IMG/VR virus record: IMGVR_UViG_3300020042_007950
Span: 18,324-82,323 of that record
Source of the DNA: a virus
Taxonomy: Duplodnaviria > Caudoviricetes
DNA: 64,000 bases
Strand: one strand, 5' to 3'
A model generated the notes under the pieces. It did no database searches. It saw only the letters and a program-made list of their open reading frames with translations, and had not been told where the DNA came from. Within the stretch, counting starts at the first letter, position 1. The number at the start of each line of letters is the position of its first letter. The position numbers and the translations under genes are program-made. This document shows positions 5,168 through 59,207 of the stretch, in pieces.

Positions 5168-5674
5168 GTGCAGCAAACCAAATCACACACGTTAAAAACT
5201 ATTTATAAAGACTACCTAGAAACTGCAGAAGATAAAATTGATTTTGAAACCTTTTCTGATATATGTTCCGAGTTTAACATTGCCATATTCGAATCTCTCC
5301 TTGACGGGCATGAGTTCAATATGCAAAACAACCTCGGAACATTATCAGTAAGAAGGGTAGAAAGAGATCCAAGAGCAATGTCAATTGATTGGCTTGAGAC
5401 GAACAAGTACAAAAAAGAACTAGAAGAAGAAGGTGTAGAGTTATACGATAGTGCAACAGGAAAAGGACAAAAATGGCACATATATTATACTGACAAGTAT
5501 TACTGTAAGTTCCATTGGACCAAGCATAAAGCAAAGGTGGCTAACAAAACTGCTTACAGATTTGACGCCTCTAGAGGATTGAAAGGTAATAAAGAGAAGT
5601 TAACAGCTCTTTTAAAACAAGATGACATTGCTTATTTAAGGTTCAAGAAATATACACCGACAAAAAATAATTAG
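5168..5674 (+). CDS. crAss-like IHF/HU-family DNA-binding protein
   Basis: FSDICSEFNIAIFESLLDGHEFNMQNNLGTLSVRR fits the HU/IHF helix-strand pattern; sits beside the tail genes as in crAss-like phages. GTG start. Confidence 0.65.
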   Translation: MQQTKSHTLKTIYKDYLETAEDKIDFETFSDICSEFNIAIFESLLDGHEFNMQNNLGTLSVRRVERDPRAMSIDWLETNKYKKELEEEGVELYDSATGKGQKWHIYYTDKYYCKFHWTKHKAKVANKTAYRFDASRGLKGNKEKLTALLKQDDIAYLRFKKYTPTKNN

Positions 5675-6580: not shown

Positions 6581-9500
6581 ATGGCATCAGAATTAAAGTT
6601 TTTAAAGGGAATGAACAAAGATACTGGTCTTTCAGATCAGGTCGACGGTACATATAGAGATGCACTTAATGCTGTAGTAGACATTAATAAAGGAGCTATT
6701 AGCAATGAATTTGGAAACAAACTTGTAGCAAGTCTTCCAACTGGATATTTACCTGTTGGCCAGATTGCTCTTCCTGATGATAACTTTATAATCTTTGCCA
6801 ACAAAGCTGGTACTCCAACATCTACTTCAAGTATTTTCCTTGTAAATACCTCCACAAATGTTTTATCTGCTTTACTTACAACAAATACTGGAGAACTAAC
6901 TGGGCATCTAAACTTTGATATAGACAACCCTATTACAGGGGAATTCAGAGTTTCTCCTACAGGAGAAATCATTGTGTACTTTACTGATAACAAATACAAG
7001 TTCACAGTAGAACCTGTAACTAAGATTGAATACCCAGAGTACTATAATCCTCCACGAGTGTTTAATGTTACAAGACAACAGATTTTTTTAAGTACTGGAG
7101 GTACCCCAAACAAATTATATACATTTACAGGACAAAACATAACCATGCTTAACATGTTTATGGACTCTGGTAGAATTCCTGAATTTAATGCAGCTTCTAT
7201 AATAGAGGGTGGTGGAGTTGTAACAGGGGCTTACTATTTAGCAGTTGCATATGCAGACAAAGACTTCACTGAAACTAACGTTTTAGGGATGGCTAATCCA
7301 GTGTACGTTCACCCATCTTCAGAAAGTTACATCCCATTTGAAATGATTGGAGGAGCTCCAGGTGGAGTTGAAACAAACAAATCTATCAAATGGGATTTAA
7401 CAAGTTTAAACATTGACTATAAATATATTGTACCATACGTACTTCAAAAAATAGGAGAAGTTCAATTTGTATACAAACTTGAATTTGTAGAAATTAAAAC
7501 TACAACTATAAGCATTACATATAGTGGTTTAGAGCAAGTAGATAAAGCCACAGTAGAAGATTCAGTATTAGATAAAGTTAACTACCTCAGTGCAAAATCT
7601 ATTGCACAGTTAGATAACAGAATGTATGCCGCAAACTTAACTGGAAGAAAAGACCTAGGTTTTCAAAGATTTGCTAACGGAATACGGTTGCAAGCCGTTA
7701 CAAAAAATATTCTAGAATTCGATCCGAGAGCTTATGATATATATAACATTAATGTAGGATATGCTGCCGTTTCAAAAAATGTAGACTACCCTTTTCCAAC
7801 GGATTATAACTATATTTCTGCAGTAACTTACCTAGTTCAAAATGGAAAAGACAGAGGGTATAGAAATATAAATAGATTGTTTAAAGAAAAAAGTTATAGA
7901 AGAGGAGAAGTATACTCATTCTATATATCTTTTATATTTAAAGATGGTACAGAAAGTTATGCATACCACATTCCTGGACGTAATGTAGTTAAATCTTGGG
8001 AAAACGGCCCTTTAAATAATGTTGATGTTTCAGGATTTAATCCTGTAGAATTTATAGAAACAAACCCAAATGGGTTAATGTATCAATATTTAGATACAAG
8101 TTTATACGTTTCTCAGAGTACAGGATATTGGGAAAATAGAAATGAAACTTACCCAGACTCTCCAGACTTTGATATTTATAGTGTAGATGGAGCAGGATCT
8201 CCAGTGCTTTCAGGATCTATAAGAAATCTAAATGTTAGGCATCACAAAATGCCTTCTAATCATAATCTTTCATTTTCTACATTAGTAACTAGTATAGATT
8301 TTTCTTTTCCCACACTTGCCAATTCATCTGTTTCAACAAGTGCACAAACTAAATTTAACGAAAATGTTAGAATATTAGGATTCAAACTTGAAAATTTAAA
8401 AATTCCTAAATTTATTCTTCAGCAAGTGCAAGGTTATAAAGTGTATTATGCAAAAAGAAATCAAGGAGACAAAACAATTATAGGACAAAGTGGGTTGCAT
8501 CCATCCGAATGGATTAAATCTGGAAATTTATATAATAAAAGGCAAACAGCTATGTTTGGACCATATTACCATATGTGGCAAATGGGTGCTCTTCCATATT
8601 CAGGTTCGTTTGCTTATACAAATTATCCTTGGGCAAGTACCTACAATGATAATGTAGCAGCTCAATCAGTATTTAAATTCCATGATTTTAATTTACTTAG
8701 AACTCAAAAAAGTTTAGGGCAAGCAACTCACATAGATTTGCAATACGTTGCAACAATGCATCAATGGAGGGGAAGGCATAAGGGTATACAACCTGGAAAT
8801 ATAGATGGTGAAGGAAACTTTGATTCTAGTACTTATTATACACAATTTAGAAGTGGAGAATCAGAATATCAATGGATAAACTCTACTCTAGCAAACACAG
8901 ACAATTACGATAATACATCGGATGATACGTCAGTTTACAGTACTCCAAGTGCATATGGTTTATTAATGGTAGCTGCAAAATATAGCCCACCTGGAGCCAG
9001 TGGTGCAAATGATTATGGAGTAAGTGTTGCTGGAGTAACTGGAAACCAAAGTTATTTAGGAGTAAATCAAACTATATTCCCACTAGATCCTGATAGTGCA
9101 AGTTACTTGGCAGGAATGTCAATTCTTAAAAACAGTTCTTCTACGGCATTTAAAGGGGCTACATATTTGTTAAATTTAAGTGGAGAAAGTTCAATTGTAC
9201 TTGGTTTAAAATCAGGCATACCTCCTTTACGTGGTACAAACATAAACTTACTTGGAGAAGATTTTGCATTTTTAAGAAAAGTAAATGTAGAGAATGCTCA
9301 AAACGGGCCTGTAACAACTGGCAGACCTAATGTTTATATAGCTAATTTATGTTCAACTAAAACAGATGTATTTGAACCGTTTGATGCTCAAAGGTTAGTG
9401 TGGACTGGATTTTATAAATCTACATTACTAGTTAACATAATTACAGGTGGGGATGTAGACGGAACTAATTACTACACAGGAGTAAGAACTTCTGACATTT

Positions 9501-11437
9501 TTGGTGGAGATACTTACATTTGTAGGTATGGTTACAGAATGACATCTCAAAGATATGGTTTTAAATATTTTAGAGGAGAAGCTGCATACGGAGAAGAGAT
9601 AGGATTTGCAGGTGGAGATATTGATGACGACGATCCTTCTGAAAACACAGGGTCTACTACTGCATATAACTTTAATACTGGGGAAAATTTTGTTACAAGC
9701 TCAGAAGACATTATAAATATTGACAATTGGAGAGGTGATGGGGAAAACACTGATTGGAATCCACATGCAACTTTACATCAAATAATAATAGAATCTGATG
9801 ACAATATCAACTTCCGGTATTGTGGAGATTCAAAAAAAGGAGTAAGCACAGCTGATAGTATGTACTTTGATAAATATACTGCTACAGATGTATTGTGGAG
9901 ATCTCCTACACACGACCTTACTAAAAAAGAAAACATACTTTACGAAGATCACTATTCTGCTTTACAGGATATTAGAGTAGCAATACCTTACCCAAAGAAA
10001 GACAAATCTACTAACTTGTTCCCTAATCGTGTAATTAGGTCAATAATACAAGATGGAAACTTTATAGATACTTACCGTTATTTCTTAGCAATTGATCTTA
10101 AAGACTTTGGTCAAAACAAAGGGTCTATTACAAACATCTTTAACTTGAATGCATTGATTTACATTCATACTGAAAAGAGTTTGTTCAAAACAAAAGGTAA
10201 ACAAAACCTTGAGTTAGCTGATGCATCTCAGGCATACATCGGTTCAGGTGATTTGTTTGCACAAGAGCCTGATGAGTTTGTGCAATCTACAGACGGATAC
10301 ATGGGATTAACCAATAAAATGGGAGCCTTAGTAACCAAAGATGGGTACGTGTTTATCTCTAGAAACTCTAGAAAAATCTTCTTAATTACAGACAAAGTAC
10401 AAGATTTAACTGACCTTGGATTATCAACTTGGGCTAGAGAGAATGTACCATTTGCTTTACAAAACTATGGTGCATCTCTTGCTGGGATAAACCTAGATGC
10501 CCCAACAAATAACTTTGGATACCTTGTTACTTATGACCCACTGTTAAAAAGACTTATCATAACTAAACGTGATCTTGTTCCTACAGCTACATTTGAATCA
10601 CAACTTGCTGCAGGAAACATCTTAGTCTCTACAGGAGTAGTTGTTGATAAAAATAAAAGACCAATATCTCTTATAGAAGGGGTTAATTTTAACAAAGGAG
10701 GTTGGACAATTTCATTATCTTTAGATACAGGGGCTTGGGCTAGCAGACACTCTTACATACCACCACTTTATGCATTCAATACTAAAAATCTGTACAGCTT
10801 TAATTCAATACCTGCATCAAAGTTTTATGTACATAATGATTATGTTAATCCTGGTAATTTTTATGGTATTGTATTTAACTTTGAGTTTGAATTTATATCT
10901 ACTGGGGATGTATCTACGTCTAAAACGGGGGCTGTTTCAACTACTAAGAGTGATAATAAACTATATTCAGCTGTCACTTACTTCTTAGAAACGTATAAAG
11001 CAGATGCTAATAACATCTCTAAAGTAACTACAACTCTAAATCCTGGATTCACTAGTTTCTATGTTTACACTACAGAACAAATCTCGGGAGTTAGGGATCT
11101 AACGTATCTTAAAAACATTAGAAAAGTTGATCACAACTGGATATTTAATGACTTTAGAGATTTGTCAAAAATAAATTTCAACACAACTTTGGCTCAAAAC
11201 CAAATCAATGTTAATGGTGACTTTTATACAGGAACGTATGCTCCAGGGGGATCAACTCCTATGTTTACGTCAGAAGGAATTGTAAATTCTCTTTACTTAG
11301 ACACAGCCAAACCTTGGTACGAGCAAAGAAAGTTCATAGATAAATTCTTAGGAATACGATTAATTTCTAACAACCGAGCTCAAAATTTAATAAATTTGTA
11401 TACAGCTAAAGCTAACTACCGTACTACGAGTAGATAA
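6581..11437 (+). CDS. Muzzle / tail stabilisation protein (crAss gp44, P22 gp10-like)
   Basis: N-terminal FLKGMNKD...YRDALN signature, beta-rich repeats, 1618 aa, and conserved position before the cargo genes. Confidence 0.8.
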   Translation: MASELKFLKGMNKDTGLSDQVDGTYRDALNAVVDINKGAISNEFGNKLVASLPTGYLPVGQIALPDDNFIIFANKAGTPTSTSSIFLVNTSTNVLSALLTTNTGELTGHLNFDIDNPITGEFRVSPTGEIIVYFTDNKYKFTVEPVTKIEYPEYYNPPRVFNVTRQQIFLSTGGTPNKLYTFTGQNITMLNMFMDSGRIPEFNAASIIEGGGVVTGAYYLAVAYADKDFTETNVLGMANPVYVHPSSESYIPFEMIGGAPGGVETNKSIKWDLTSLNIDYKYIVPYVLQKIGEVQFVYKLEFVEIKTTTISITYSGLEQVDKATVEDSVLDKVNYLSAKSIAQLDNRMYAANLTGRKDLGFQRFANGIRLQAVTKNILEFDPRAYDIYNINVGYAAVSKNVDYPFPTDYNYISAVTYLVQNGKDRGYRNINRLFKEKSYRRGEVYSFYISFIFKDGTESYAYHIPGRNVVKSWENGPLNNVDVSGFNPVEFIETNPNGLMYQYLDTSLYVSQSTGYWENRNETYPDSPDFDIYSVDGAGSPVLSGSIRNLNVRHHKMPSNHNLSFSTLVTSIDFSFPTLANSSVSTSAQTKFNENVRILGFKLENLKIPKFILQQVQGYKVYYAKRNQGDKTIIGQSGLHPSEWIKSGNLYNKRQTAMFGPYYHMWQMGALPYSGSFAYTNYPWASTYNDNVAAQSVFKFHDFNLLRTQKSLGQATHIDLQYVATMHQWRGRHKGIQPGNIDGEGNFDSSTYYTQFRSGESEYQWINSTLANTDNYDNTSDDTSVYSTPSAYGLLMVAAKYSPPGASGANDYGVSVAGVTGNQSYLGVNQTIFPLDPDSASYLAGMSILKNSSSTAFKGATYLLNLSGESSIVLGLKSGIPPLRGTNINLLGEDFAFLRKVNVENAQNGPVTTGRPNVYIANLCSTKTDVFEPFDAQRLVWTGFYKSTLLVNIITGGDVDGTNYYTGVRTSDIFGGDTYICRYGYRMTSQRYGFKYFRGEAAYGEEIGFAGGDIDDDDPSENTGSTTAYNFNTGENFVTSSEDIINIDNWRGDGENTDWNPHATLHQIIIESDDNINFRYCGDSKKGVSTADSMYFDKYTATDVLWRSPTHDLTKKENILYEDHYSALQDIRVAIPYPKKDKSTNLFPNRVIRSIIQDGNFIDTYRYFLAIDLKDFGQNKGSITNIFNLNALIYIHTEKSLFKTKGKQNLELADASQAYIGSGDLFAQEPDEFVQSTDGYMGLTNKMGALVTKDGYVFISRNSRKIFLITDKVQDLTDLGLSTWARENVPFALQNYGASLAGINLDAPTNNFGYLVTYDPLLKRLIITKRDLVPTATFESQLAAGNILVSTGVVVDKNKRPISLIEGVNFNKGGWTISLSLDTGAWASRHSYIPPLYAFNTKNLYSFNSIPASKFYVHNDYVNPGNFYGIVFNFEFEFISTGDVSTSKTGAVSTTKSDNKLYSAVTYFLETYKADANNISKVTTTLNPGFTSFYVYTTEQISGVRDLTYLKNIRKVDHNWIFNDFRDLSKINFNTTLAQNQINVNGDFYTGTYAPGGSTPMFTSEGIVNSLYLDTAKPWYEQRKFIDKFLGIRLISNNRAQNLINLYTAKANYRTTSR

Positions 11438-16820: not shown

Positions 16821-19800
16821 ATGGCTGAATCAGATGCAATCCTCAATGCTTTTACTAACCTGTCAGGAAAACCAAAAGAATCTTTTGTAAATAAAAGTAA
16901 ACCTGATGGTGACCCTATAAAAGGTGCTTTTGAATCATTGTCTGGAGGAACTGCTAAACTTGAAAATAGAGCCCCTAAATATAGTAACTATAGTCCTTTA
17001 GATATTGCTGGTCAAGCTGTAGACTTAACTAATGTTTACACTGACCCTATTGGAAAATATGCAGCATACAATGTTGCATTAAATCCATTCAACGACTGGA
17101 ATGAAGAACGTGCTCAAAACCAAAGCACTACTCAAAAGTGGATGAATGGTTTAAGCAAAGCCGGTCTTACTACATTAGGTTCTGTGTATGAAAATACAGT
17201 AGGAGTATTAGCAGGTGTTGGTTCTATGATGTCTGGTGGTTCATACTACGACAACTTTGTTGGAAGACAAGTTGATGAAATGAACCAATGGGCTCAATCA
17301 GCTCTCCCAAACTACTACACCAAGGCAGAGGTAAACGGAAGTCTAGTTTCCAATCTTGCTACAGCTAACTTCTGGGCAGATAAATTTGCTGGAGGTTTAG
17401 GGTACACTCTTGGATCTATTGCTACAATGTGGCTTGGTACAGGAGAATTAGGGCTATCTGCTAAGTTAGGTTCACTTGTTGCAAAAGGTGCACAAGGTGC
17501 TAAAATTGCAGATGCTGCAGGTGACATACTTAATGTAACAGACGACTTAGCAAAAGTTGCAGGTAATGCAGCTAAAGCAGGAAGTAAAGAAAAGATTTTA
17601 TATCAAACTATCAAAGGAGTAGAAGATGCTAAATCAGCTGGTAAAGGGTTAGAAGCTTTAGATAGATATGCTAAAATTAAAACTGCTACAAAACATCTAG
17701 CAGTTGGTACTCAGATGTCATTAGCTGAATCTTCTGTTGAAGCTCGTGAAGCTAAAAACTCATTCATTGAAGAACGTAAGGCAGAATGGGAGGCATCAAA
17801 TCCTGGTCAACCTCTTCCAGCAGATGTAGAAGAAGCTATCATGCAAAGTGCTAATGCTGTAGGTAATACTACGTTTGCTATTAACCTTCCTCTTCTAACT
17901 GCTACAAACTTATTGATGTTTGGTAAAGCAATGCAAGGAGCTCGTGTTGGGGAAAAAACAATGTATGACATTGAGAAAAAAGGATTAACTGCAGGTGAAG
18001 AATGGGTTGAAAAAGCTGCAAGCTCTAAGTTTGGGAAAGCATACGGCAGAGCTCAAAAAACATTTGGCCCCGTACTTAAAACTTCTGCTGAAGAAGGTTT
18101 TCAAGAAGCCGGCCAGTTTGCTGGATCTCAATTTGCACGTAACTACTACGGAGAAAAGTTTAATGATGGTACAGGAGACATGGCTTCTGCAATGAGCAAA
18201 GCATTGTCATCGACTATAGGGACTAAAGAAGGTTTAGAGAACATATTGATTGGAGCATTAGTCGGAGGTGGTACCGGAGCAGTAAGCCGTCTTATGGGAG
18301 CTGAGAAAAAACTTCTTGCTCAAAAAGGACTTAATACTACTGAAGCTATTAAGATGCTTAACTCAGGAGCTATTAAAAAAATTATTGAGAATGCAGAGCA
18401 AAGTGCTGAAAACCTAGCATTCATCAAAGACATTAATGATGCTAATCTTGATAATGAAAGAGAAGGCATTACAAAAGCTGAAAGACGTCAAAACGATTTA
18501 AAGGCTGAAACTGCTCGTATGAGATTGATCCACGGAGTCTTTGCTAAGATGAATGGATTAGGGGCAATCGATTATGCAATGGAGCAGTTTGATGACGCTG
18601 CTTCAATGGACGAAAAAGAATTCAAGCAAGCTTTTGGTTATGACATGAACCGTACTCTTGAACAGCAAACTGGTAAAACCCAGATGCAGATCATTGAGGA
18701 CACGAAAAATAAAATGCAATCTGCTATCAAACGTTCAGAGCAGGTGCATAATATCCTTTCACAGTTTAACCCTGGTACATCACTAGTAGCTAAGCTTAGA
18801 GATAGTTTCCAAACAGAAGAAACTAAAAAGAATAAATTGATTCAAGATACTGTACGTAGAACATACGGACAAATCTTAACTCACAATCTTCTTGATATAG
18901 ATACTATCGACAGTAGAATTGACGAGCAATACGATAAACTTGTACAGCTTGCTCCGGCTCTAGCAAAATTAGATCCAGAAGAAATTAAATACCAAATTAA
19001 AGTTGGAAATGTTGAACTTGACTCAAACGGTAACCCAATGTTCAAGGCAGCAGCTTCTGTTAACTTTAAAGACAATATTTTAAAACAATTTAATGAGATC
19101 TATGCTGCTAAAGTAGAGCTTGATGCAGCAACAGCTGATGAATTCAAAGCTGAATTGCTACATCTTAGAGATCTTGGAATTAAACGTGCAGGTATTTCAG
19201 AGTCATTTAAGAACTTGTCTCGTAATCCAGAGCAAATGGATTTGTATGTAGAAGCTCAAATGGCTATGCAAGAGCAAGAACAGAAGAGAGCTGCAGAAGA
19301 TAGAGCTAGACAAGCAATTGAAGGAGCAGAAACTGCAGATGATCTTACAGATGCTGTAGACCCAGATGCTTCCCCAGAAGTTAAAGCTGCTGCATTAGAA
19401 AGACGTGCTCAGCTTGAGCAAGAAGAGAAAGCTAAGATTGCTCAGTACATGTCAATGGACTTAGAGGACATGAAAGCTATCGATATGGATAGCTTGGATG
19501 CTATGTCTCAATCAGCATTGATGAAGGCAATGGAGGCCAAGACTAAAGAAGCTCAAAGTAAAGGTCTTACTCCCGATCAACTTAAATCTGAAAAAGAATT
19601 TAAAACTGTTGGAGGAGAAAGTGCAGGACTTGTCGATCTGTCTGAAATGGAGCAGACTCTGTTGGATGAGATAATGGTTTCTCCAAACGGAACTCAGTTC
19701 AATATTGATGGTAGACAGTACTACATGGAGAGTGCTGACCCAGTAGAAGCTTTAATTTTAGATGATGCTGGAGAAGTAGTAGGAGTAAAACTTACTGACT

Positions 19801-53460: not shown

Positions 53461-53653
53461 TTCTTGTTGCTGTATGTGCATCGTCATTCTTGTCAATAAA
53501 GTCAAGAACATTAGCCACAAATTTAACATCAAGATTAGAATTGTCAAACTCTATTCTTTCAAACTTACATTCAATAGCTTCATCGTATTTCTGACGAAGA
53601 ATTGAATGACGACCTGTATCCATCAGGCCTTTTACCCACTTCATATAACCCAT
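53447..53653 (-). CDS. Hypothetical protein
   Basis: 68-aa ORF overlapping the polA start. Confidence 0.5.
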   Translation of the reverse strand: MGYMKWVKGLMDTGRHSILRQKYDEAIECKFERIEFDNSNLDVKFVANVLDFIDKNDDAHTATRNDKL

Positions 53654-53737
53654 AGCTGATTAGTTTTTACCTTCGTGATTATTATCTGTCAACATAATAC
53701 TACAAGCATCAGGTATTTCTACCTGAATGCTTTTCTA

Positions 53738-54115
53738 TCAATCATACAACTGAATTTCTACATAATATGCACGATCTGCATACTCCACTCTTACGTAAGT
53801 AGCATCATCGTAATCCATTAAGTACACCCAGCATTTCTCACCATCTTCATCAGTTGATTGCCACTCTTCAGTTTCGCTATCAATTCTTCTGTATTTGCTA
53901 TTGACAAATCTTTTAGTTTGATAAGGAGACTTCATAATAAGAGTGTCTTTGTGCATGATTACAGGGAAATCAATCTCTCTCATATCACTCCATATGTATT
54001 CTCCTTTAACATCCTCATTTAAATGAGCAATACTTAGAGAAACACCATGGAATACTGATGGTTGTGCAATTGCTACATTAGCAAGCAACATAAATGCAAA
54101 AACGATTTTCTTCAT
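53738..54115 (-). CDS. Secreted/periplasmic protein
   Basis: Signal peptide MKKIVFAFMLLANVAIA-Q. Confidence 0.65.
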   Translation of the reverse strand: MKKIVFAFMLLANVAIAQPSVFHGVSLSIAHLNEDVKGEYIWSDMREIDFPVIMHKDTLIMKSPYQTKRFVNSKYRRIDSETEEWQSTDEDGEKCWVYLMDYDDATYVRVEYADRAYYVEIQLYD

Positions 54116-54163
54116 AATTGTTTGGTTTTAAATTGTGTTTATTAGTAATTAAATCTTTGCTAT

Positions 54164-54222
54164 AAAAAAACAAGTCAGTAGCCATAAGAGAGCATTGCCA
54201 ACTCTCCTATGGTACTACTTGC
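54164..54222 (-). terminator. Intrinsic terminator downstream of twister B
   Basis: 11-bp stem CCAUAGGAGAG/CUCUCUUAUGG (one G-U pair), outer CAAG/CUUG extension, then U7. Confidence 0.7.
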
Positions 54223-54238
54223 CTAATCATTAACCTAA

Positions 54239-54362
54239 CCCTCTGTACTCAATCACAAAACTCGGCTAAACTATGTTGTTTATATGCATTTCAAACATAG
54301 TCTTTATAACGCTGTCTCTATTTTGTAATTGCTTAGCCTTGGGAACTAAGAATGGTACATTA
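54239..54362 (-). ncRNA. Twister self-cleaving ribozyme (copy B)
   Basis: UAA, P2 UGUA/UACA, T2 CC/GG, P4 CUUAG/CUAAG, loop UUCCCAAGG, 11-bp P5, then GA-GGG (T1 CCC/GGG). P1 is weak. Confidence 0.8.
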
Positions 54363-54365
54363 AAA

Positions 54366-54391
54366 TGCCTAGGAGATTTCTCCCCTAGACA
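54366..54391 (-). other. 11-bp GAAA-tetraloop hairpin immediately 5' of the twister B cleavage site
   Basis: UGUCUAGGGGA-GAAA-UCUCCUAGGCA followed by UUUUAA. Confidence 0.7.
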
Positions 54392-54433
54392 CTTTTGTTT
54401 AACAGCGACCTTTTATACTAACAAATCGAAAAA

Positions 54434-55036
54434 TTAGTTAAAGATTTCTCCTGTTGCTGCAGAGATACCAGCTGGTATACCTGTAGTCTTTGATTCTACT
54501 GCATCCATTGCTAAGAATACGTGATTAGCTTTGTGGAAAGCCATACGTGTATTAGCAAAGATATACAGACCTTGATGTGTGCAATAAGCACCATCTTTAC
54601 CTCTACGTTTAGCAGAGGTTTCGATGTTGTTGAGCTGATACTCAGTAGGCTGAGTAGTCTCTGCAACTTCTACCTTCAATGGAATTTCTTCCCCATTAAC
54701 AATAGCTACTGGATTAAGGATGTTCAATGGAAGAACTTCACGTCCCATTGCATCAATAGTCCAAGCATCATTGTTATCAGACAAATCAATGCCTAACAAT
54801 GTCGTAGCAGCTTTCGCTTCTACTGTTAACCAAGCACGACGTGCTCCTCCTTGAGAAAAACGGTCATCACCTGCATTAAATAAAGCCAGAGGATTAGCTG
54901 ATTGTGTAGACTCTTTTTGAAGAACCTCAGCAAATTCCAACTGCAATTTTTGTCCATTCACTTTCCTAGCTTGGACTAACAAGGTGCTATTCATTGACAA
55001 ACCTGCCAATGAACCGCTGTTTAGAGTGTTACTCAT
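54434..55036 (-). CDS. Hypothetical protein
   Basis: Start taken at MSNTLNSG (55036); 200 aa. Confidence 0.65.
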   Translation of the reverse strand: MSNTLNSGSLAGLSMNSTLLVQARKVNGQKLQLEFAEVLQKESTQSANPLALFNAGDDRFSQGGARRAWLTVEAKAATTLLGIDLSDNNDAWTIDAMGREVLPLNILNPVAIVNGEEIPLKVEVAETTQPTEYQLNNIETSAKRRGKDGAYCTHQGLYIFANTRMAFHKANHVFLAMDAVESKTTGIPAGISAATGEIFN

Positions 55037-55107
55037 GATTTTTATATGTTGATTTATGATTAAATCCAAATTTGAAAGCAGTTTCAACACTTGCTTAGGT
55101 GATTTTG

Positions 55108-55269
55108 TTATAGTTCCATTAAGTGGAACTCTACTCTAATGAGAGGTCTTTCGATGAGTTGTACATCACCTCTAAGATACTTTTTACCATCAATGGTAAT
55201 TACATCTTCTTTATCAATGATGTCACGTTGTTCATCACTGTGTGCATAATACCTTACGACTTTATGCAT
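55108..55269 (-). CDS. Small hypothetical protein, 53 aa (not in the ORF track)
   Basis: Translated by hand: MHKVVRYYAHSDEQRDIIDKEDVITIDGKKYLRGDVQLIERPLIRVEFHLMEL. Confidence 0.6.
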   Translation of the reverse strand: MHKVVRYYAHSDEQRDIIDKEDVITIDGKKYLRGDVQLIERPLIRVEFHLMEL

Positions 55270-55481
55270 AATTTATACTTAAATGAAAATGTCCAAGGAG
55301 CAATGTTTACTCCTTCTCCTATTTTTGTAATTCTTTCTAGCAATCTACCTTCTGCATCTCTAACAAAATGAGGAACACTAACAATATCTTTTGATAGCAA
55401 AGGTTCTTTACTTCTGTCCTCAAATTTTACTATGAGTTCAGTGATATCATTATCAAGTTTGTTTACTGAAAATTCTGCCAT
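55254..55481 (-). CDS. Hypothetical early protein
   Basis: 75-aa ORF in a tightly packed small-gene array. Confidence 0.55.
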   Translation of the reverse strand: MAEFSVNKLDNDITELIVKFEDRSKEPLLSKDIVSVPHFVRDAEGRLLERITKIGEGVNIAPWTFSFKYKLCIKS

Positions 55482-55483
55482 AA

Positions 55484-55669
55484 TTATTCTTGTGTTATAT
55501 TATTAGCAACTCGTTTGAATCCCATTCTCATAGGACCAAACATGAACGCCAGCCAATATGAGTCCTCATATTCTGGTAAACATTCCCCAAAGGCAATGGT
55601 TGGAACGAATACAAATACTCGTTCCTCCCAATACCAATGGATTTGAATGTGGTGTTTAAGCTTTCTCAT
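55484..55669 (-). CDS. Hypothetical early protein
   Basis: 61 aa; ATGA overlap with the upstream gene. Confidence 0.5.
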   Translation of the reverse strand: MRKLKHHIQIHWYWEERVFVFVPTIAFGECLPEYEDSYWLAFMFGPMRMGFKRVANNITQE

Positions 55670-55875
55670 TGATGCATTGATGTGTAAAAGATAGACACAA
55701 TGATACCAATCATGCTAAGCAATACACAGTAAGTAGCATTATGTATGCACAAGAAGTACACACTAATGTCGAAATTAACTAACGCAGCAAGTAATGCTGG
55801 TGCTACAAATACAGCTGTGAATACAGCAGCTAATTCTGCTAATCCACGAAATAGTTGTTTGAATTGCTTTCTCAT
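55666..55875 (-). CDS. Small two-helix membrane protein
   Basis: Two hydrophobic stretches. Confidence 0.55.
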   Translation of the reverse strand: MRKQFKQLFRGLAELAAVFTAVFVAPALLAALVNFDISVYFLCIHNATYCVLLSMIGIIVSIFYTSMHQ

Positions 55876-55877
55876 GA

Positions 55878-56087
55878 TTAATCTTGTTTTAATGGATTAG
55901 CAAAATTGTAACGTTCTGTAACTCTGTATTCAGAGTTATAAGGCTTGATAGTTCCCTTGTCATCGTAATAGCAAGGGTTTTTGCCACCACTACGTGTTGC
56001 AATAGAGTGTGCATTACATGATGATAGCATAGCTATCGATAAGATTGTTGCAAAGTAAAGCAACACATACGCTGTTGATTTTTTCAT
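55878..56087 (-). CDS. Small lipoprotein
   Basis: Lipobox-like MLSS-C after a hydrophobic signal. Confidence 0.6.
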   Translation of the reverse strand: MKKSTAYVLLYFATILSIAMLSSCNAHSIATRSGGKNPCYYDDKGTIKPYNSEYRVTERYNFANPLKQD

Positions 56088-56111
56088 GATTATTTATAGG
56101 TTAATTGATTA

Positions 56112-56119
56112 CAAATATA
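56112..56119 (-). promoter_or_regulatory. Bacteroidota -7 promoter element (TATATTTG)
   Basis: TAnnTTTG upstream of the ATG at 56087, preceded by an AGGCA/TGCCT hairpin. Confidence 0.5.
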
Positions 56120-56158
56120 TAAGGCAGTTTGTCTACATGCCTAGGTATACGACGAATA

Positions 56159-56410
56159 TCACGTCCTTTCTATTGTAACTTTAATAACTACTTCGTGTAG
56201 TTTAGTAGGCTGATAATCATTATCATATGGATAATCATCATCAGGACTGCTATCCATTTTACGACGTAGATCTTCTAATGCATCTCTGTCATTAATTTCT
56301 TGACGAGCTTCCTCGACTTCTTTAATAACTTTAGATGTGTACAAGATTGTACTCATTAGGTCATCTATATCCACACTTGGATACTTTACTATAAATTCGT
56401 TTAGATTCAT
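56159..56410 (-). CDS. Hypothetical acidic early protein
   Basis: 83-aa ORF immediately downstream of twister A. Confidence 0.55.
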   Translation of the reverse strand: MNLNEFIVKYPSVDIDDLMSTILYTSKVIKEVEEARQEINDRDALEDLRRKMDSSPDDDYPYDNDYQPTKLHEVVIKVTIERT

Positions 56411-56441
56411 GGTTAATAAATGTTAGTTAATGATTTGATTA

Positions 56442-56544
56442 TGTACCACTCTGCATTCAGTTGTCCGTTCGACGATATAGTATTAGACTATAAGGTTATT
56501 ACAACTGCTTACCCTTGTGAAGTAAGTTGTGATGCATTAATACA
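56442..56544 (-). ncRNA. Twister self-cleaving ribozyme (copy A, type P1)
   Basis: P1 UGUAU/GUACA, UAA, P2 UGCA/UGCA, T2 UC/GG, P4 CUUAC/GUAAG, loop UUCACAAGG, P5 CAGUUGU/ACAACUG, then GA-GUG (T1 CAC/GUG). Covaries with copy B. Confidence 0.85.
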
Positions 56545-56545
56545 A

Positions 56546-56604
56546 ACCAACAACATATCGGTCGAAAGACTTATATAGATAAATCAGACCTCAATGCTGT
56601 TGGC
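56546..56604 (-). other. Long hairpin immediately 5' of twister A
   Basis: 11-bp GCCAACAGCAU/AUGUUGUUGGU, inner GGUC/GACC and GAUUUAU/AUAAGUC. Confidence 0.6.
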
Positions 56605-56610
56605 TAATGA

Positions 56611-56790
56611 TTAAACTTTTGATCTTAATTCTTTGATGTGGAATATTAGTAACCATACTGTGAATGCAGAAACAAACGATACGAATGTAATTACATACAC
56701 TGATGGATTGAGTAATACCACAGTAAAATACAACAATGCAAAGCTGTCAAGCATAGCAATGATAATGATAGTCAATAGAAAGTATTTCAT
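56611..56790 (-). CDS. Small two-helix membrane protein, 59 aa (not in the ORF track)
   Basis: Translated by hand: MKYFLLTIIIIAMLDSFALLYFTVVLLNPSVYVITFVSFVSAFTVWLLIFHIKELRSKV. Confidence 0.6.
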   Translation of the reverse strand: MKYFLLTIIIIAMLDSFALLYFTVVLLNPSVYVITFVSFVSAFTVWLLIFHIKELRSKV

Positions 56791-56829
56791 AACAATGTGT
56801 TATATAATTTGATAGACTAATTTGTAGGT

Positions 56830-57050
56830 ATTAGTTAATGACCTTGATAATGATGGTGAAGACCCTGGTGGGCAATCACTTAATCTTTGGTACTACACCT
56901 AAATTCCCATTTATGTAGTATTAGCTTCATTGATTAACAATAGGGGAACAAGCCTCCCAATTCTACTTATTGTTTAGTCAATCAAATCTACCATAGGACC
57001 CAAAGATCTCGTGATTACTATCAGGCTCTCCGATCATCCCCGAAGGGCAG
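56830..57050 (-). ncRNA. Highly structured RNA, possibly a circularly permuted twister-like ribozyme
   Basis: Helices UAAUCAC/GUGAUUG and AUCUUUGG/CCAAAGAU flank a GAG/UAA internal loop; L4-like UUAUCAAGG; nested 9-, 7- and 7-bp stems; cUUCGg hairpin. P4 has a C-C mismatch. Confidence 0.45.
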
Positions 57051-57051
57051 C

Positions 57052-57234
57052 CTATAGCTGCACCTCCAGTCCCACCACGAAACGGTCCCACAAGTCTGAG
57101 TTGTAGCACGTTACCAATGCACCTGCATGGAACACACCAGCTGAGTCGATGTACTCAGAGGTTCTACCCCACATCATATCTACACCGTTCTTGTCTTGTC
57201 CTAAGTTGGACACGTAAATCAATTTTGCTTTCAT
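57052..57234 (-). CDS. Hypothetical protein, first gene of the - strand block
   Basis: 60-aa ORF starting at the strand switch. Confidence 0.55.
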   Translation of the reverse strand: MKAKLIYVSNLGQDKNGVDMMWGRTSEYIDSAGVFHAGALVTCYNSDLWDRFVVGLEVQL

Positions 57235-57251
57235 GGCAATGAAATATTAGG

Positions 57252-57260
57252 TTATCCACA
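57252..57260 (+). promoter_or_regulatory. Perfect DnaA box (TTATCCACA)
   Basis: Exact consensus 9-mer in the divergent intergenic region; a single copy was seen. Confidence 0.35.
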
Positions 57261-57628
57261 GGGCCACCTTGACCCGTCGATGCTTAGTGGGGTCTTTGAT
57301 TCTGTAGGGCCTCACTCTCAAAAAATTTTTCCCCACAAAAAAAATTTTCAGTTGGTTACAGTCGCTAACCATCTTATATGCTCTTGCATATTGTATTAGG
57401 CAAATCGTTAATTCTATATGTTAATGCATGTTAAATCATACACAGCAATTCGGTAAACTTCCGAGTTTGGCCATGTTTTGTTACGGAGTTTGGCAAATCT
57501 AATTCGTACCCGTCAAGGTATTGCAATATGCAAAAACCACATTAAAGTATCATACAGGGTATAAAACCAACTAATATTAGGAGTTATAACGGACATTACT
57601 TACTATAGTGTGGTAACAATTTTCTATG

Positions 57629-58649: not shown

Positions 58650-59207
58650 ATGGCTACTCTTATAACCCCTCAAAATTACTCTGTAGATAATCTTCCTTTA
58701 GGATCTATCGAAAGAGCTCCAGCATCTATTCGTCAAATGAATGAAATTGTTTCCGAGCTGAACTGTGCTGGGTCTTTCTACAATTCTACTACTATTACTA
58801 CTGCGGCAATTAACACTGCTTATCCGGTCCCAACCCCGACTACTGCTTATTCAGAAGGAATGGGATATGTTTCAAATACTATTCTACTTGTAAAAGCAGG
58901 AACTTACAGCTTTGACTTTACAATTCAAGTGTTTAAAAACAATACTAGTGCTGAAGGATCTTTAACTGCATGGCTAGCTATAAATGGAACTAACCAAGAT
59001 TACACTGCCAATACAATATCAATGGCAATTACAAATCAAATTGGGGTTCTTACTCTTCACTCTCATGTAGTAATAGCTGCTGATAATAGTAGAGTTGGAT
59101 TATTGTATGCTGCTAACTCAACAGATATGCAACTTAGATCATCTGTTGCTTCAGCCCCATACCCAGCAATTGCAGGTGTTACTTTAGAAGTGAACAAAAT
59201 CCGATAA
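58650..59207 (+). CDS. Structural protein with a BclA-C/C1q-like jelly-roll domain
   Basis: KAGTYSFDFTIQV...AWLAINGT...VTLEVNKI strand pattern. Confidence 0.55.
   Translation: MATLITPQNYSVDNLPLGSIERAPASIRQMNEIVSELNCAGSFYNSTTITTAAINTAYPVPTPTTAYSEGMGYVSNTILLVKAGTYSFDFTIQVFKNNTSAEGSLTAWLAINGTNQDYTANTISMAITNQIGVLTLHSHVVIAADNSRVGLLYAANSTDMQLRSSVASAPYPAIAGVTLEVNKIR

Follow-up and report, generated by a model that had tools for sequence, protein, structure and literature searches.

A conserved phage subtype of twister-class RNA with an apparently reduced T2 contact, placed between small early genes

Here, we found that a 103-base element on the minus strand of a virus genome (element A) is, by comparative sequence evidence, a genuine twister-class RNA that belongs to a phage subtype uncatalogued in Rfam. 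The stretch of DNA analysed, hereafter the window, comprises 64,000 nucleotides (positions 18,324 to 82,323 of the IMG/VR record IMGVR_UViG_3300020042_007950). The element occupies an intergenic gap in the orientation of its neighbouring genes, and both its fold and its sequence are conserved. With a probability of roughly three in four, we read it as a type-P1 twister-class self-cleaving ribozyme of this phage subtype, situated within a minus-strand early or replication message; its catalysis, the exact cut site and its role in processing are what we infer by analogy with known twisters.

Read on the minus strand from 56544 to 56442, the 103 bases present P1-UAA-P2-P4(L4)-P5-P2'-GA-T1'-P1', all in order (Table 1), and the letters as well as the pairings are identical to those reported in a first-pass annotation made from the sequence alone. 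That annotation held that every canonical element was present, which is true of the order, of P1, P2, P4 and T1 and of the core bases, whereas P3 is absent and T2 is non-canonical. Indeed, copy A has the P1/P2/P4 stem order of the type-P1 twister and all of the twister core bases, namely the A 3' of the cut, the G of the GA and the AA in L4. We take G56451 to be the counterpart of the catalytic guanine, a role that comes from established twister knowledge. Known twisters have a U-A cleavage dinucleotide, U6-A7 in Osa-1-4 (PMC6154101). They are reported to do without P1, and P5 hardly influences their cleavage (PMC6154101, PMC11662667). The P5 interior of copy A is 36 nt long and folds with a small hairpin. 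The minimum free energy (MFE) fold of the whole element is unremarkable (z = -1.9), and the evidence for element A is comparative, not thermodynamic.

Table 1. Positions in the window of the parts of element A, of its second copy and of neighbouring structures, with canonical twisters of related phages in the last row (positions there are those of the loci named).
Feature	Positions	Strand	Pairing or basis
P1 5' strand, UGUAU	56544-56540	-	pairs with GUACA 56446-56442
P1 3' strand, GUACA	56446-56442	-	start codon of ORF 56159-56410 is 31 nt further downstream
Predicted scissile dinucleotide	U(-1) 56539, A(+1) 56538	-	analogy with U6-A7 of the Osa-1-4 twister (PMC6154101)
A(+1)A	56538-56537	-	minus-strand read
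P2 5' strand, UGCA, with fifth-pair U56532	56536-56532	-	pairs with 56452-56456
P2 3' strand, A56456 with UGCA	56456-56452	-	covariation of the fifth pair
C56531, candidate remaining T2 contact	56531	-	with G56514 or G56513; both sides invariant
P4 hairpin, CUUAC 56526-56522 / GUAAG 56512-56508	56526-56508	-	all five pairs with double changes
L4, UUCACAAGG	56521-56513	-	loop of P4; AA 100% conserved in the family
T1 pseudoknot, L4 side, CAC	56519-56517	-	pairs with GUG 56449-56447
T1 pseudoknot, 3' side, GUG	56449-56447	-	covariation
P5 arm	56507-56458	-	7-bp base CAGUUGU 56507-56501 / ACAACUG 56464-56458 and variable interior
Conserved GA	56451-56450	-	counterpart of the GA in 'GAGGG' of the Rfam consensus
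P0-like three-tier hairpin, 54 nt	56604-56551	-	fold; compensatory changes in relatives
Copy B, same subtype	54362-54239	-	R2 89.8 bits; T1 CCC/GGG; long P5
GAAA-loop hairpin upstream of copy B	54387-54368	-	fold
Compact canonical twisters in relatives	L080:3209-3260, L040, L064, L031:6846-6904	gene strand	RF03160 match

Is element A a single occurrence or a member of a larger family? An exact pattern for the 5' half (33-34 nt with 19 specified bases) matches at least 120 viral contigs in IMG/VR and, in addition, 18 contigs of genome collections, all of them MAG records, several of which are binned as Bacteroidota and several of which are 80-150 kb long. In the retrieved DNA, 152 of the 172 pattern sites are followed within 300 nt by the exact 9-mer composed of the reverse complement of P2, GA and the reverse complement of T1, for which we ourselves estimate a chance rate of about 0.1% per site. 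Model R1, built from 16 copies, gave 100 matches in 80 of the pattern-positive loci, nearly all of them full length, and found only copy A and a second copy, B, in the whole genome. Model R2 was built from 100 matches in other contigs, with the window's own sequences excluded; it scored copy A at 94.2 bits (E 2e-24), recovered copy B (Table 1) and matched nothing else in the window. Only 20 of 138 subtype loci share any protein with the minus-strand block of the window, and thus the subtype spans many phage lineages. The genes that flank its copies are mostly small (median about 80 aa) and mutually unrelated.

The pairing was assessed on an alignment of 100 sequences, 94 of them distinct (A4). 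Among the distinct sequences, 94.5% of the cells are paired, compared with 79.5% for shuffled controls and 28-46% after sliding of the partners, and 22 of the 26 pairs show double changes. P2 is paired in 99.2% of cells, with double changes, P4 in 99.4% and P5 in 99.1%, where six of seven pairs show double changes and the length of the interior varies widely among relatives. P1 is paired in 74.4% family-wide, with double changes in all 5 pairs. The T1 pseudoknot, whose 3' side was constrained neither by the search pattern nor by the covariance model, reaches 99.2% and shows 1, 13 and 11 double changes in its three pairs, with C-G to A-U exchanges at two positions. Bases that have no helical role are nearly invariant in the 100 aligned sequences (U 96%, A 100% and the next A 99%; loop AA 100%; G 96% and A 96%), so that the UAA, the loop AA/GG and the GA, which had been described as fixed between copies A and B, are indeed 96-100% conserved among relatives. 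The claim that an RNA structure is under selection is likewise borne out, by the double changes in 22 of 26 pairs and by the R2 E-value of copy A. A first, loose descriptor, with about 20 false positives per 1 Mb, was used only for seeding alignments; alignment A2 is biased, since this descriptor required the pairing of P2, P4, T1 and T2, and our conclusions therefore rest on A4, on R2 and on the 3'-half test. As read from these sequences, the subtype is characterised by the absence of P3, an obligatory P5 of variable length, a P2 of 5 bp, a 9-nt L4 (UUCNNAAGG) and a reduced T2.

The base of P5 (CAGUUGUAAUA / UAUUACAACUG; A4 columns 42-49 and 248-254) is far more conserved in sequence than a helix requires, and this across otherwise unrelated phages. 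A tertiary contact, a protein site or a recent spread could account for it.

Copy B, first located by a simple descriptor, lies on the same strand as A. The compensatory changes that had been noted between the two copies are all found: P2 exchanges C-G for U-A, P4 exchanges C-G for G-C, three P5 pairs change, and T1 exchanges A-U for C-G. The core of copy B has no adjoining P1, and its P1 columns are marked as unpaired in the R2 alignment. UUAGG (54238-54234) finds its sole complement in CCUAG (54373-54369), a sequence that also serves as the 3' strand of the GAAA-loop hairpin upstream of copy B; since both this hairpin and a P1-like pairing at copy B would need it, the two pairings are mutually exclusive. 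A second hairpin, followed by a U-run, lies downstream of copy B at about 54170-54210.

One departure from the twister consensus concerns T2, for which U56532 and C56531 had been paired with GG in the first-pass annotation. The base that follows P2 and the one that precedes P2' make a C-G combination in 96 of 133 distinct copies, U-A in 33 and another combination in 4; on alignment A4, the same positions are CG in 70 and UA in 19 sequences. Such an exchange of C-G for U-A is impossible for a base that pairs with an invariant G, and U56532 is therefore better read as paired with A56456, a fifth pair by which P2 is extended and which in copy B is C54355-G54248. Although a wobble of U56532 with G would be possible, this base covaries with A56456 according to Watson-Crick pairing (129 of 133 relatives). 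C56531 is conserved at 98% in the family and the GG at 99-100%, such that a pairing between them would involve invariant bases that show no variation. The first and the last loop bases are U-G in 90 sequences, C-G in 1 and U-A in 1; the first U and the last G of L4 could thus close P4, which would leave a single C-G contact for T2. By this reading T2 is non-canonical in the subtype, with the GC/GC replaced, and its outer pair appears to have been replaced by the fifth P2 pair. When natural twisters were assayed on a large scale, T2, there termed PK1, comprised 2 bp in every ribozyme tested and responded sensitively to mismatches (PMC11662667), and a subtype with a reduced T2 thus falls outside the range tested there. 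We speculate that selection might act on a folding intermediate and not on the active state.

Do the catalogued twister models recognise the element? With Rfam release 15 at the gathering score, no twister-group family was found in the window, and at E<=10 there was no twister match in the whole window or in slices of 201 and 241 nt around A and B. In the window's own genome, RF03160 gave only a chance match of 9.8 bits inside an ORF (window 58807-58863). The first-pass annotation had named the lack of a covariance-model hit as one half of what would speak against a twister, and the cmsearch against Rfam twister-P1 that it proposed indeed gives no match even at E<=10, so that this search is not decisive for the subtype. 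We attribute the miss to the consensus, which has P3, no P5, GC after P2 and GC at the end of L4, whereas the variant lacks P3, carries a long P5 and shows YC following P2 and GG in L4. In related phages, compact canonical twisters (Table 1) match RF03160 significantly, at 42-57 bits (E 4e-10 to 3e-14), although below its high gathering score of 67.2 bits. These compact versions are 43-65 nt long, lack P5 (one has P3) and have a GC/GC T2. They lie in the same operon region as copy A, upstream of the family A DNA polymerase and on the gene strand, and share with it the UAAUGCA...UGCAGAGUG core and the CAC/GUG T1. In one locus, L031, a canonical copy with P3 and a variant (5353-5489) lie 1.4 kb apart on the same strand, and only the canonical one is detected by Rfam. 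Model R1 did not recover the compact canonical twisters, and the link between variant and canonical forms thus rests on shared core sequence and position, not on a single model. Together, the covariation over about 100 relatives and the Rfam-detectable twisters in the relatives' operon support the earlier assignment to the twister class, type P1 with a P5 arm.

The window belongs to a complete virus record of 82,323 bp with direct terminal repeats and giant ORFs of 1,500-2,500 aa. A replication block on its minus strand encodes a family A DNA polymerase, helicases, a primase and rIIA/B-like proteins. The closest named relatives of this polymerase come from crAss-like phages, at about 30% identity, and we class the host as a phage distantly like crAss-like phages. 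Both copies occupy gaps between small ORFan genes where this block begins, upstream of the polymerase gene, and they bracket seven small early genes that precede the replication genes. A query with the polymerase retrieved 80 related viral loci, in which the motif, on the same strand as the genes, again precedes the polymerase. Almost all of 98 distinct copies of the subtype are intergenic, and only 7 overlap a long ORF; the flanking genes are mainly on the ribozyme strand in 70 and mainly opposite in 7. A blastn search of 53500-57500 against GenBank phages gave no match, and PHROGs and Pfam gave no families for the small flanking ORFs. Scans for sigma-70-type promoters and intrinsic terminators yielded no more sites than shuffled sequence, and the window holds a mild excess of the Bacteroidota-type TAnnTTTG motif, which does not delineate the transcription units near A and B. 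From gene order alone we infer that A is co-transcribed with its flanking genes. In the literature that we searched, no paper connects twister ribozymes to crAss-like phages. Neither Pfam nor PHROGs matches the 218-aa ORFan at 54434-55090 (minus strand), which is nevertheless conserved in about 70 of the polymerase-related loci, and a canonical twister ends within a few nucleotides of the start of its homologue in L080, L010 and L031. In L007, a group I intron (RF00028, 53.6 bits; 9471-9698) is found where the DNA polymerase match stops at residue 493, and the polymerase gene there looks intron-split.

A markedly stable structure precedes element A. The 62 nt upstream of it have an MFE of -24.8 (z -5.9) and contain a P0-like hairpin that starts 7 nt past the stop of ORF 56611-56790 and ends 6 nt before P1; compensatory changes conserve it in L002, L003, L004, L006 and L007. 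About 38% of the family members have a markedly stable fold in these 62 nt. P0 is an optional stem-loop immediately upstream of the twister 5' end, which on average lowered cleavage in vitro (PMC11662667), and the hairpin, by analogy, fits this optional stem. Further upstream, a candidate permuted twister ('element C', 56830-57050, in the region 56800-57080 of the minus strand) is so far unsupported: neither R2 nor Rfam matches it, and its AAGG loop motif is AAUGG in the closest relative, L002. L002, L004, L006, L007 and L215 strongly conserve the 3' part of this region, which covers about 56800-56880 and immediately precedes the start of ORF 56611-56790, and this conserved tail may be a promoter or a leader; L215 is without a middle section of about 140 nt of the region 56800-57080.

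The surroundings of the copies are mosaic. Within the P5 of copy A, homology to L002 breaks off at 56503; it is restored at 56188, about 315 nt further on, and the 83-aa gene downstream of A (56159-56410) has no homologue in that relative. The compared segments are window 56188-56503 and L002:3297-3507, and the homology picks up again close to where the next small ORF ends. Copy B has a P5 interior of 84 nt here and of 12 nt in L002, and about 1.9 kb that separate the 125-aa gene from the polymerase in L002 are absent from the window. Two other loci carry variant twisters in tandem (L004:5121-5435, 22 nt apart; L006:3927-4276, 96 nt apart); if both members of such a pair cut, the first ribozyme body would be released as a small RNA with 5'-OH and cyclic-phosphate ends. 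The mosaic pattern is compatible, as far as the sequences go, with recombination at the conserved cores.

How would element A act? Upon formation of P2, P4 and the T1 pseudoknot, the 2'-OH of U56539 would attack its own 3' phosphate, with a predicted cut between 56539 and 56538, and G56451 and A56538 would take the catalytic roles known for twisters. The upstream piece would then end in the P0-like hairpin with a 2',3'-cyclic phosphate, and a 5'-OH would mark the start of the downstream piece, in which the folded ribozyme body would precede the next small gene. Copies A and B together would cut the polycistronic message into segments that are separately stable or separately translated. By analogy, the most likely role of A would be self-cleavage of a polycistronic early message between two small genes. 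A role in transcript processing has been suggested for bacterial and phage ribozymes, which matches our proposal for A (PMC6765202).

In its architecture, the element corresponds to the type-P1 twister (RF03160; the class is reviewed in PMC6154101 and PMC6765202): the order P1-UAA-P2-...-P4(L4)-...-P2'-GA-T1'-P1' is the same, as are the 3-bp T1 between L4 and the strand after the GA, the open end at P1 and the conserved U-A cleavage dinucleotide, loop AA and GA, and P0 and P5 are known there as optional arms. It differs in that P3, present in 78% of known twisters, is absent from the subtype, and that P5, present in 1% of them, always occurs, with a conserved base (PMC6154101). The Rfam twister consensus has GC after P2 and GC in L4, whereas the subtype has YC and GG, with the Y pairing with the purine before P2', and its L4 has 9 nt instead of the 8 of the type-P1 twister. 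Twister-sister, likewise a small self-cleaving RNA that occurs close to phage genes, resembles twister in the sequence of its P4 loop, but its cleavage-site sequence is different and the double-pseudoknot fold of twister is inaccessible to it (PMC6154101). The covarying T1 and the UAA...GA core speak against an assignment of element A to twister-sister, and no family of the Rfam twister group matched at E<=10. Gut phages carry HDV-like theta ribozymes, which are likewise small, self-cleaving, widespread in uncultured phages and missed by earlier catalogues, and for which a part in the processing of phage transcripts is assumed (PMC10879173). They are, however, of another class, adjoin tRNAs and are tied to recoding, whereas the twisters described here lie between small protein-coding genes. 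In phage T7, RNase III sites between the early genes cut the polycistronic early mRNA and leave a hairpin at the upstream 3' end. The likeness between these sites and element A is a functional analogy only, both being intergenic structured sites; T7 uses a host enzyme, whereas the RNA of element A would cut itself and leave 2',3'-cyclic phosphate and 5'-OH ends.

Could the element descend from a twister and no longer cleave, serving instead as a protein site, a stabilising 5' or 3' structure or an attenuator? Such a role would fit the rearranged T2, in which a fifth P2 pair stands in place of the outer T2 pair, together with the sensitivity of natural twisters to defects in this pseudoknot (PMC11662667); the lack of a match to the Rfam models, a P5 base unusually conserved for a plain helix and the hairpins followed by U-rich tracts upstream of both copies point the same way. 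We nevertheless consider it unlikely, given that the unpaired bases needed for catalysis only (the cut-site U-A and the GA after P2') are 96-100% conserved in 94 distinct sequences, that T1 has been maintained through compensatory changes, and that variant and canonical twisters occupy equivalent places in related operons, which suggests a shared task.

The mosaicism invites a different explanation, namely that conservation acts at the level of DNA, with the cores as recombination junctions or protein-binding sites that move gene cassettes and with an incidental fold. The break of homology to L002 inside the P5 of A, the unequal P5 interiors of copy B, the absence of the 83-aa gene from L002 and the tandem copies in L004 and L006 would all fit such sites. 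However, compensatory changes that span five helices and a pseudoknot bear the mark of selection acting on RNA pairing and not on DNA sequence, only the ribozyme strand has G-U pairs in number (for example, U-G occurs 33 times at the innermost P1 pair), the strand orientation tracks the flanking genes, and recombination at conserved cores can be a by-product of RNA function; we hold this explanation to be very improbable. As for a chance resemblance or a plain repeat without selected structure, short stems arise easily in an AT-rich region, the MFE z-score of the element is modest and the loose descriptor produced false positives. The E-value of copy A, obtained with a model that excluded the window's own sequences, and the at least 120 viral contigs with the 5' half, nearly all of them with a matching 3' half, leave this a negligible probability, and we regard chance resemblance as refuted by the R2 score, the family size and the covariation.

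Our preferred reading remains that of a self-cleaving type-P1 twister. A bolder combination would make the subtype a distinct twister branch, in which the outer T2 partners have been recaptured (Y-R extending P2 and U-G closing P4), the cores would be portable junctions where crAss-like phages swap small early genes, and the 2.2-kb message between A and B could be circularised by a host RtcB-type ligase; that all of this holds together seems to us doubtful. If the portable-junction part were true, the near-invariant cores with their free-form P5 would be ribozyme-headed gene cassettes. If the A-B pair cuts, the 2.2-kb message would carry 5'-OH and cyclic-phosphate ends and could be a substrate for an RtcB-type ligase.

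In summary, we found a widespread phage subtype of twister-class RNA that departs from the consensus in the pseudoknot least tolerated to vary by natural twisters and that offers a natural test of the need for T2. The Rfam models miss this large family, whose 5'-half pattern occurs in at least 120 viral contigs, and published counts of phage twisters may therefore be underestimates. Although the chemistry of twister ribozymes has been studied in depth, what they do for bacteria and phages is not yet settled (PMC6765202), and the two copies that bracket seven small genes provide a tractable case in which to ask whether ribozymes set the boundaries and the stability of phage mRNAs.
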